Sequence record: AP019521.1
Reading direction: 5' to 3' (one strand)
Length of the DNA stretch: 64,000 nt
From: Escherichia phage KIT01
Part shown: in pieces, positions 36,689-38,297 of the stretch
How the letters are laid out: each line of letters opens with the position of its first letter
Numbering within the stretch: position 1 is the first letter of the stretch
Notes under the pieces: model-generated
Database searches by the model: none
What the model saw: only the letters and a program-made list of their open reading frames with translations
Told to the model about the DNA's origin: nothing
Made by a program: the position numbers and the translations under genes

Positions 36689-36716
36689 TGGTATTTCCTA
36701 AGTTAATTAACTTATC

Positions 36717-36752
36717 TATTTATACAAAAAGCCCAACCTTTCGGAAGGGCCG
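36717..36752 (-). promoter_or_regulatory. terminator hairpin fused to late promoter TATAAATA (module copy 1)
   Basis: minus strand: hairpin (36726-36752) then T-run overlapping TATAAATA (36717-36724), 29 nt upstream of ATG 36688. Confidence 0.55.
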
Positions 36753-36756
36753 TGAA

Positions 36757-37311
36757 TCAATTCTTATAGAATCGGAACGGGTTTACGTGGAAGGCTAACA
36801 TAGCCTTAGGGATTTTACGAGACAAAAGACTCTTAAGTTTCCAACCGCAGTATACTCGTAGGTAAAAGGTAATCCCACCAACCTTAAGATATGGAACCGA
36901 AGCAAAGACTCCCCAGGCGTCGTCATTCCACATCCATAGCCACCCATGATGAGCTTTATCAGGAGAACCTGATTCCACATCGGGATTACCACGATAATGG
37001 AATTCTGAGCTACAATCACGGCCGAGTTTATGGTAAGCAAAGTTATAAGCTTTATTTCGCCACAACCAGGCTACTCGTTGAAGGTATATGCCTAAAGGTA
37101 GTTTTCTTATTTTAGCCCAACGTTTAATGTGACCTTTATCACCGTCAATTGGATTATCGTATGTCATCATCCAATCAAAGCCGTACGGCAATTTACCAGT
37201 CTTTTTATTGTGGAAAGGAACTACAAAAGGTGCAAGGATAACAGCCAGAACCATAGAGATAAAATCTAGTGGGACCAACAGAACCCAACTCAAATATTTT
37301 AAAAGTTTCAT
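36757..37311 (-). CDS. late-expressed membrane-anchored protein of unknown function
   Basis: 184 aa; N-terminal TM MKLLKYLSWVLLVPLDFISMVLAVILAPFVVPF; AGGAAATAAT RBS; flanked by the two module copies. Confidence 0.5.
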   Translation of the reverse strand: MKLLKYLSWVLLVPLDFISMVLAVILAPFVVPFHNKKTGKLPYGFDWMMTYDNPIDGDKGHIKRWAKIRKLPLGIYLQRVAWLWRNKAYNFAYHKLGRDCSSEFHYRGNPDVESGSPDKAHHGWLWMWNDDAWGVFASVPYLKVGGITFYLRVYCGWKLKSLLSRKIPKAMLAFHVNPFRFYKN

Positions 37312-37337
37312 ATTATTTCCTAAGTTAGTTTACTACA

Positions 37338-37376
37338 TATTTATACAAAAAAGGCCCAACCTTTCGGAAGGGCCTT
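37338..37376 (-). promoter_or_regulatory. terminator hairpin fused to late promoter TATAAATA (module copy 2)
   Basis: near-identical to copy 1: hairpin 37351-37376, TATAAATA at 37338-37345. Confidence 0.55.
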
Positions 37377-37383
37377 TAACCTA

Positions 37384-37756
37384 GGGTAACCTTGTCGGGG
37401 TTCCACCTGCTAGGCAAGTGTTTGTACGAAACGCCAGGATTCGAACCCGGTTATTAAGTAGTTGACGCTACTCAATATTTTTAAAAGGCCATATCTCGAC
37501 CATATCCGAACGTTCCGTCAAAAACGCTACTCGGCTTACGGCAAAGATATTTCCTCGAATCGATAATTAGGTGCGCCGTTTCTGCTGTGATGTAAGGGGA
37601 CGTTAACAGATCGTAAAGATTTGTTAATGCCAGTCCTTACTCAGGGAACATCAGTCCGACGACTTACCGGTAGCGACCCGGTTTCTTGTTTGTTGCGCCG
37701 GTGAATGCTGGTAATCAGTCTTCATACGACGGCTTGACTATATAATAGTCTTCATT
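37384..37756 (-). ncRNA. structured non-coding RNA region downstream of the tRNAs (possible small stable RNAs, includes a tRNA-like T-arm)
   Basis: no ORF; GGTTCGAATCC T-loop-like element near 37432-37447 with acceptor-like pairing but no standard anticodon arm; bounded by terminator at 37351-37376. Confidence 0.3.
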
Positions 37757-37831
37757 TGGTATCCCGCCCTGGGATCGAACCAGGACCGCAAACTTAGAAG
37801 GATCGTATGCTATCCATTACACCAGCGGGAC
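37757..37831 (-). tRNA. tRNA-Arg (anticodon UCU)
   Basis: hand-folded cloverleaf: acceptor GTCCCGC/GCGGGAT, T-arm CCTGG-TTCGATC-CCAGG, anticodon loop CTTCTAA, encoded ACCA 3' end. Confidence 0.7.
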
Positions 37832-37836
37832 GTAGT

Positions 37837-37913
37837 TGGTGACCCAGACCAGATTTGAACTGGTAACCTTTCCCTTATGAGGGGACTGCTGCTAACCATT
37901 GAGCTACAGGGCC
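37837..37913 (-). tRNA. tRNA with CAU anticodon (Met, or Ile if lysidine-modified)
   Basis: hand-folded: T-arm ACCAG-TTCAAAT-CTGGT, anticodon loop CTCATAA, encoded CCA; 5 nt from tRNA-Arg. Confidence 0.65.
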
Positions 37914-37918
37914 TTAAA

Positions 37919-38185
37919 TCAAACTACAAATCCAGCAGGAGCATTATCATCTTTAGCCATGTGCTGAATTGTATGATAAGTCATTTCTTCAGGAGCAACC
38001 AGATAAGCCGCAGCGTTAACTAGTGGAATTATTTTTGGTTTAGCGAATGTGCTATCGGCAATTGCCATAAAGGGCTCGCCATCAGTCTCAACTTCGCCAA
38101 ATTGACATTCATATGAAATAGAACAACGTTTGGTAGTTGTTGTCTTGGTTTCTGGGTCGTAAAAAGCTAATTTTAATACTAACAT
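37919..38185 (-). CDS. hypothetical protein
   Basis: ATG 38185 after GAGGTG; immediately upstream of the tRNAs. Confidence 0.45.
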   Translation of the reverse strand: MLVLKLAFYDPETKTTTTKRCSISYECQFGEVETDGEPFMAIADSTFAKPKIIPLVNAAAYLVAPEEMTYHTIQHMAKDDNAPAGFVV

Positions 38186-38297
38186 AAACACCTCAAATAA
38201 AATTAAGTAAAGTAAGTTTGATTAATAGACTTTGTCTATTATGAAAGGTTCTTTGAGGGAAGAACCTTTGGTAATAGAGGGTATTAATGATAGAGTA

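Follow-up and report, generated by a model that had tools for sequence, protein, structure and literature searches.

We analysed a 64,000-nucleotide (nt) stretch of Escherichia phage KIT01 (AP019521.1; hereafter the window) and conclude, with a probability of roughly 85%, that it carries at 37384-37913 the Dhakavirus copy of the 'subcluster II' RNA module of phage T4. Every element of the module lies on the minus strand. Two tRNA genes are followed by orthologues of T4 species 2 RNA (rnaD, 37569..37686) and species 1 RNA (rnaC, 37425..37562), two RNAs known in T4 since the 1970s. A sequence-only reading of the window had proposed that the stretch between the tRNAs and a terminator may encode small stable RNAs like these, or else a degenerate tRNA. 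The first suggestion holds: the feature is real, was correctly read and is already known in kind, and the lineage-specific insert and comparative structures reported here are modest additions to known RNAs. The identity, synteny, fold, conservation, tRNA-like architecture and natural dispensability of this material are documented below.

By megablast, the window belongs to the Dhakavirus wg01 group (99.2% identity to QL01 and WG01), in whose records rnaC is unannotated. The T4 records X03016 and HM137666 give the order tRNA-Ile, segB, tRNA-Arg, species 2 RNA, species 1 RNA, terminator. The window aligns colinearly with these records, and 136 of 138 positions are identical in rnaC and 104 of 119 in rnaD. 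Over the whole region, identity to T4 is 100% in the tRNAs, 91% across rnaD, rnaC and the trailer, and 70-78% in the flanking coding genes. The stretch is free of open reading frames (ORFs), as had been read from the sequence: 37756..37385 contains no minus-strand ORF of at least 25 amino acids (aa), and the only ORFs overlapping it are two short ones on the plus strand (34 and 27 aa). Nor does 37756-37385 contain a canonical cloverleaf; ARAGORN finds none, and the Rfam tRNA model RF00005 gives none even at E up to 10. Running ARAGORN and the Rfam models, the check suggested along with the sequence-only reading, therefore revealed no further canonical tRNA in the interval. Rfam searches at gathering and permissive thresholds assigned no family to the 373-nt stretch and returned noise only (tRNA-Sec, 14.3 bits, E = 9; isrK). 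The fold z-scores against dinucleotide shuffles are -4.5 for rnaC, -2.95 for rnaD, -3.0 for an insert preceding rnaD, and -2.35 for the trailer plus terminator.

A covariance model of the rnaC family scores 158 bits at this locus, its sole match in the window. Our rnaC alignment comprises 18 distinct sequences from GenBank phages and IMG/VR, drawn from seven genera (Tequatrovirus, Dhakavirus, Gaprivervirus, Tegunavirus, Moonvirus, Karamvirus and Kanagawavirus); the model later located rnaC in RB69, which belongs to an eighth genus, Mosigvirus (156 bits). The consensus structure pairs 95.5% of alignment cells and has compensatory changes at 18 pairs, a result reached by none of 500 shuffles. 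Slid controls gave about 40% paired cells, and RNAalifold independently returned the same fold.

The two ends of rnaC form an acceptor-like stem (37562-37556 paired with 37433-37427), which is perfect in phiR1-RT and in which pairs 2 and 3 covary. Next to the 5' strand is arm I (37555-37487), built around a nearly invariant core hairpin (37527-37510). Arm II (37477-37452) is a 10-base-pair (bp) helix with the conserved loop CGUCAA, and ends 1 nt before the T arm. The T arm itself is canonical (CCGGG-UUCGAAU-CCUGG, 37450-37434) and adjoins the 3' acceptor strand, CGUUUCG (37433-37427). These are the tRNA-like T arm and acceptor pairing that had been noticed from the sequence, together with the lack of a standard anticodon arm; we found no such arm either, and ARAGORN and the Rfam tRNA models make no call there. 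Across genera the arm I core is invariant, whether its bases pair or not, whereas the other arms drift by compensation. This invariance of base identity points to sequence-specific recognition. Kanagawavirus-like rnaC sequences retain this invariant core despite an insertion of 1 nt in arm I. The loops of the two arms contain candidate kissing elements, UGAC in arm I (37520-37517) and GUCA in arm II (37466-37463), which can pair in 18 of 18 sequences; on these complementary loops we tentatively propose a loop-loop kiss.

Taken as a whole, rnaC resembles a class II tRNA in which a long arm of nearly invariant sequence stands in for the D and anticodon region. We draw this comparison because the rnaC model gives true tRNAs 7-21 bits, by way of their acceptor stem and T arm, and because it aligns the tRNA-Ser variable arm with arm II. 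Like class II tRNAs such as tRNA-Ser, rnaC has an acceptor stem of seven positions and a 5-bp T stem, capped by a UUCGAAU loop, that adjoins the 3' acceptor strand; it also has a long hairpin that stops 1 nt short of the T arm, at the position of their variable arm. It departs from them in having a 71-nt compound arm in place of the D and anticodon arms and two U-U mismatches among its acceptor pairs, and it lacks an encoded CCA (the next bases are U-ACA). The tRNA-like domain of tmRNA is similar in that its 5' and 3' ends form an acceptor stem next to a T arm and a large insertion replaces the anticodon region. In contrast to tmRNA, however, rnaC has no G3-U70 pair, no conserved tag frame and no series of pseudoknots, and is matched neither by the ARAGORN tmRNA search nor by Rfam. 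The closest counterpart is T4 species 1 RNA itself (rnaC, RNAC), which has the same fold and the same place after rnaD and before the trailer and terminator; one of the two substitutions that separate it from the window's rnaC gives a G-U wobble in the T stem.

In Enterobacter phage PG7, a 95-nt tRNA-Met(CAU) is annotated in GenBank and predicted by ARAGORN over the 3' two-thirds of the rnaC homologue (positions 754-848 of the locus). This call is almost certainly a mis-annotation that results from an alternative, internal acceptor pairing. We rejected the internal fold (ACGGAACG/CGUUUCGU), which has zero compensatory changes and breaks in phiR1-RT, and kept the fold in which the two ends of the RNA pair.

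Several relatives lack rnaC. It is precisely absent from VR5 and from four IMG/VR contigs, where rnaD joins the trailer directly, and in P896 and at one other locus (L025) its place is taken by about 500 nt that include a 127-aa coding sequence (CDS). The junctions of deletion and replacement are identical, lying at the 3' end of rnaD and at the trailer sequence AACACUUGCC. In these alignments rnaC behaves as an accessory cassette. In PG7, CW742, Moon and phiR1-RT, rnaC sits between tRNA genes, with spacers of 5-6 nt in distant genera. Such a position among genuine tRNA genes, with such short spacers, fits processing as a tRNA. We did not find rnaC in Cronus (Roskildevirus), which has 16 tRNAs. 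A search for a host origin gave zero matches in 5,426 E. coli genomes, and a loose pattern scan of bacterial genomes returned 120 loci, 100 of which were tested with the model and all of these proved to be chance matches. Annotation of the two RNAs is sparse: they are annotated in only a few records (T4T, RB3, RB9, RB55, RB59), and many genomes either show nothing at rnaD and rnaC or have 'hypothetical protein' CDSs, apparently spurious, lying over them (RB51ncORF141c, ar1_138/139 of AR1, SP18_gp149).

The second RNA, rnaD, is rod-shaped and 118 nt long, with a base that does not vary and an apical hairpin that can be swapped. The base consists of a 5' hairpin (ACCGG-GUCGCUA-CCGGU, 37682-37666; 5 bp with a 7-nt loop) and an invariant closing stem, in which GUCGUCG (37663-37657) pairs with CGGCG-C-AC (37578-37571); the internal loops GGACUGA and GAAAC are invariant as well. 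All three elements are identical in T4 species 2 RNA (rnaD, RNAD), and the differences that reduce identity to T4 to 87% all fall in the apical hairpin or in the first and last bases. An alignment of 17 distinct rnaD sequences gives a consensus structure in which 97% is paired and six pairs have changed on both sides; the first pair of the inner helix flips from U-A to A-U in 16 of the 17. The apical domain (alignment columns ~47-100, corresponding to 37640..37590) comes in three alleles of unrelated sequence among close relatives, and all three give the same rod shape when folded.

Two features of T4 rnaD do not extend to the family. Its 3' end is ACCA in T4 only, as opposed to ACCU in the window and ACCG or ACAG in most relatives, and is probably not a tRNA-like CCA end. 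The distance from the CCA of tRNA-Arg to the start of rnaD is 70 nt in the window and 1 nt in T4. The 1-nt spacing and the 3' ACCA are thus details of T4 and do not define rnaD. Because a 66-70-nt extra module follows tRNA-Arg in the window, where T4 has 1 nt, the 5' end or the length of mature rnaD may differ from T4.

We also considered pairing between the two RNAs. The 9-mer GAGUAGCGU occurs twice in rnaC on the minus strand, in arm I (37532..37524) and in arm II (37473..37465), and its GUAGCG part is complementary to the loop CGCUAC of the rnaD hairpin. This intermolecular pairing was rejected: 34 of 300 shuffles were as good, and each RNA is also found alone.

In T4, RNAC and RNAD are late RNAs, as confirmed by Northern blot (PMC9697503), and their roles are unknown (PMC3014915). 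A single-nucleotide polymorphism (SNP) in rnaD alters virulence on one E. coli strain in a host-specific manner (PMC12685909). By analogy with T4, we infer that the RNAs of the window are co-transcribed with the tRNAs, excised by tRNA-processing enzymes and accumulate as stable late RNAs. A single minus-strand transcript would contain, in order, tRNA-Ile(CAU), tRNA-Arg(UCU), the 66-70-nt hairpin module, rnaD, rnaC, the trailer hairpin and the terminator, and would be cut by the host tRNA-processing machinery. rnaC has a minihelix of acceptor stem and T arm, the element that RNase P recognises, and the AAUUAU spacer between rnaD and rnaC (37563..37568) would be the 5' leader that RNase P removes. 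This cleavage would free rnaC, and rnaD could then be trimmed back to its closing stem. The older literature describes processing of T4 species 1 RNA by RNase P.

As for function, we tentatively favour, at clearly less than even odds, the idea that rnaC and rnaD are dispensable, trans-acting accessory RNAs that bind proteins and tune infection on particular hosts, and that they have no part in decoding. rnaC would bind host or phage proteins that recognise tRNA-like shapes, and rnaD would bind ones that recognise a specific apical hairpin. This proposal is based on the invariant core of arm I, the allelic apex of rnaD, the cassette-like gain and loss of rnaC, and the location of both RNAs in a hyperplastic region.

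A number of observations count against our overall reading of the module or against parts of it. The acceptor stem of coliphage rnaC has two central U-U mismatches, and in the four Kanagawavirus-like sequences the T loop reads UGCAUGC, a departure from the canonical UUCGAAU. The support for the kissing loops comes down to one compensatory event, from C-G to U-A, in the phiR1-RT clade. The high identity across genera could partly reflect recombination, or gene conversion associated with homing, beyond selection. The published rnaD SNP (PMC12685909) is unplaced on the structure and could be standing variation. Finally, since rnaC has been lost naturally in some relatives, any function that it has is conditional.

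A bolder version of the accessory-RNA proposal, which we regard as doubtful, casts rnaD, perhaps together with the insert, as a modular host-range or counter-defence RNA and rnaC as a tRNA-mimic decoy for a host enzyme or nuclease that recognises tRNAs. The invariant scaffold of rnaD (5' hairpin and closing stem) would then present a swappable apex that chooses the host factor or defence system. If true, two RNAs with no assigned role for 50 years would acquire one.

The most serious rival is that neither RNA acts in trans. rnaC and rnaD would then be structured spacers that aid maturation of the tRNA transcript or shield its 3' side, and would persist as stable by-products. In its favour, the RNAs would share a transcript with the tRNAs and, in the T4-like arrangement, occupy its 3' end. 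rnaC is dispensable in view of its natural deletion in relatives, and the trailer hairpin and terminator are kept even without rnaC; to our knowledge, no phenotype has been reported for T4 deletions of these RNAs. However, rnaC is found in the middle of the tRNA array, not at its 3' end, in Karamvirus, Moonvirus and Tegunavirus, and the arm I core is invariant in base identity across genera to an extent that goes beyond pairing. An RNA of 138 nt with four helices and a tRNA shape is also more than a simple protective hairpin would need, and an rnaD SNP affects host-specific virulence (PMC12685909). We consider this explanation unlikely.

Base-pairing small regulatory RNAs directed against host or phage mRNAs are a less probable explanation. 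The abundance of the two as late small RNAs (PMC9697503) would suit such a role, as would the invariant internal loops of rnaD, GGACUGA and GAAAC. But rnaC offers no long, conserved single-stranded seed; the loops that it does conserve complement one another. E. coli genomes show no significant similarity, a duplex between rnaD and rnaC is equalled by the shuffles mentioned above (34/300), and no trans-acting small RNA has been characterised in T4 (PMC3014915).

It is very improbable that the stretch holds decaying tRNA pseudogenes, left behind when the cluster shrank from eight tRNAs to two. This corresponds to the degenerate tRNA offered as the second possibility in the sequence-only reading, and a T arm with acceptor pairing but no anticodon arm is indeed what such a remnant might look like; the 95-nt tRNA-Met that ARAGORN calls in the PG7 homologue points the same way. 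Yet T4, with all eight tRNAs, has the same two RNAs. rnaC is 98.6% identical to its T4 counterpart and is conserved in seven genera with compensatory base-pair changes (18 such pairs), whereas the internal acceptor fold that underlies the ARAGORN call has no compensatory change and breaks in phiR1-RT. Moreover, the T4 tRNAs missing here mapped upstream of tRNA-Ile, where the window carries a 90-aa ORF.

That the stretch encodes small proteins or a tmRNA-like tag is scarcely credible: several records do place a 'hypothetical protein' under the match, and rnaC does hold an 11-codon frame (AUG GUC GAG AUA UGG ... UAG), but there is no minus-strand ORF of at least 25 aa in 37756..37385, the phiR1-RT clade has AUU in place of the AUG, genera differ in the frame and in the position of the stop, substitutions track base-pairing and not codons, the ARAGORN tmRNA search is negative, and acceptor pair 3-70 is A-U or G-C in place of the G3-U70 of tmRNA.

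By itself, the finding amounts to straightforward, unannotated orthologues of T4 rnaC and rnaD, which annotation pipelines miss because neither RNA has an Rfam family. The comparative material could make the role of the T4 species 1 and species 2 RNAs more testable. It includes a covariation-backed structure of rnaC with a candidate kissing loop, an arm I core whose invariance makes it the likely recognition surface, three apical alleles of rnaD that occur in nature, phages that naturally lack rnaC or have it replaced, and a lineage-specific extra module. Together with the published rnaD SNP that affects virulence on one E. coli strain (PMC12685909), this material makes a role in host interaction the obvious hypothesis.

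The lineage-specific module occupies the segment between tRNA-Arg and rnaD (37687..37756, minus strand), and the insert relative to T4 is 66 nt long (37752-37687). It has a 5' hairpin (GACUAU-UAU-AUAGUC, 37750-37736), followed by a second stem in which GCCGUCG (37733-37727) closes with CCGGCGC (37701-37695). The insert is not present in T4, VR5, SP18 or RB69. It was found in 26 phage records only, all of them Dhakavirus wg01-like, at an identity of at least 98.8% and in a constant context. The insertion site is variable among relatives, being 1 nt in T4 and occupied by a CDS in SP18, P896 and RB69. In its layout the insert parallels rnaD, with a hairpin followed by AAGUCGUCG ... CGGCGCA. The colinear similarity between the insert and the ends of rnaD is modest, as 32 of 2000 and 26 of 3000 shuffles score equally well. 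From this resemblance, a miniature paralogue of rnaD is a plausible identity for the insert, to which we would give even odds. Three other identities were rejected. A repeat or mobile element does not agree with a single copy in the window and 26 near-identical records with one context; a tRNA remnant does not agree with zero matches from tRNA models; and a promoter does not agree with the lack of a sigma-70-like site and of the TATAAATA motif.

The tRNA cluster at the head of the module is as small as the sequence had suggested. Across the entire window ARAGORN calls two tRNAs and no more, each encoded on the minus strand, as against eight in the homologous region of T4, and the predicted identities, Arg-UCU and a tRNA with a CAU anticodon, are borne out by ARAGORN and by RF00005. 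The tRNA(CAU) gene (37837..37913) scores 53.9 bits and the tRNA-Arg(UCU) gene (37757..37831) 48.8 bits, both against a gathering threshold of 29, and both encode their CCA end. The two genes are indeed 5 nt apart, separated by the spacer ACUAC (37836-37832); T4 has about 710 nt here, including the homing-endonuclease gene segB, which is missing between the window's two tRNAs. The tRNA-Arg gene has zero differences from T4, and an 86-nt BLAST piece that includes flanking bases is 98.8% identical.

Over 76 nt, the tRNA(CAU) gene matches the annotated tRNA-Ile gene of T4 at 100% identity. ARAGORN labels it as Met from the anticodon alone, and the T4 records give tRNA-Ile. On the strength of this identity we assign it as a T4-type tRNA-Ile, a putative AUA reader, and not as tRNA-Met. 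T4 tRNA-Ile(CAU) reads AUA after modification of C34. Codon usage in 56 long ORFs of the window is 10.6 AUA and 6.5 AGA per 1000 codons. AUA and AGA are rare codons in E. coli, which would account for the retention of these two tRNAs.

The six other T4 tRNAs map upstream of tRNA-Ile, and in the window they are replaced by the 90-aa ORF (38191..37919, minus strand; phrog_14864, function unassigned). Further upstream, the promoter-bearing region that precedes tRNA-Gln in T4 has a 76% match at 38328-38237. The same reduction to two tRNAs is seen in RB69, which shares the pair tRNA(CAU) and tRNA-Arg(UCU), followed by rnaD, rnaC and the terminator. RB69 differs in what separates tRNA-Arg from rnaD: a CDS, ORF150c, in place of the window's 66-nt non-coding insert.

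The encoded CCA end of tRNA-Ile (37845..37837, minus strand, GGGUCACCA) is a difference from T4, whose gene has no encoded CCA (GGGTCA|TA). The T4 sequence departs from the window exactly at the CCA, on the segB side, which suggests that a boundary of the segB cassette lies at the 3' end of the tRNA. Elsewhere in the window, the plus strand at 43937-44109 matches the 5' part of T4 segB, which encodes a GIY-YIG homing endonuclease, with 75% nucleotide identity.

Downstream of rnaC, the trailer (37382..37424, minus strand) contains the hairpin CACUUGC-CUA-GCAGGUG (37420-37404) and forms an invariant block in an alignment that includes VR5 and P896. It is kept even in relatives without rnaC and is probably a processing or stability element. 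The older literature gives RNase III a role in forming the 3' end of species 1 RNA. The trailer is followed by an intrinsic terminator, GGCCCUUCC-GAAA-GGUUGGGCC plus U6 (37347..37374, minus strand). This is the terminator that had been read from the sequence; its stem-loop (37374-37353) and U tract (37352-37347) lie just outside 37384-37913. It is homologous to the 'pot. terminator' of T4, from which it differs in pair-preserving ways; an internal UU/UU mismatch caused a simple terminator scanner to miss it.

The end of the RNA module is marked by a T4-type late-promoter motif, TATAAATA (37338..37345, minus strand), which serves the next gene (start at 37311). The module made up of the terminator and TATAAATA (37374..37314, minus strand) recurs after that gene, at 36751..36692 on the same strand, with 88.7% identity over 62 nt. 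The terminator together with TATAAATA looks like a reusable intergenic cassette.

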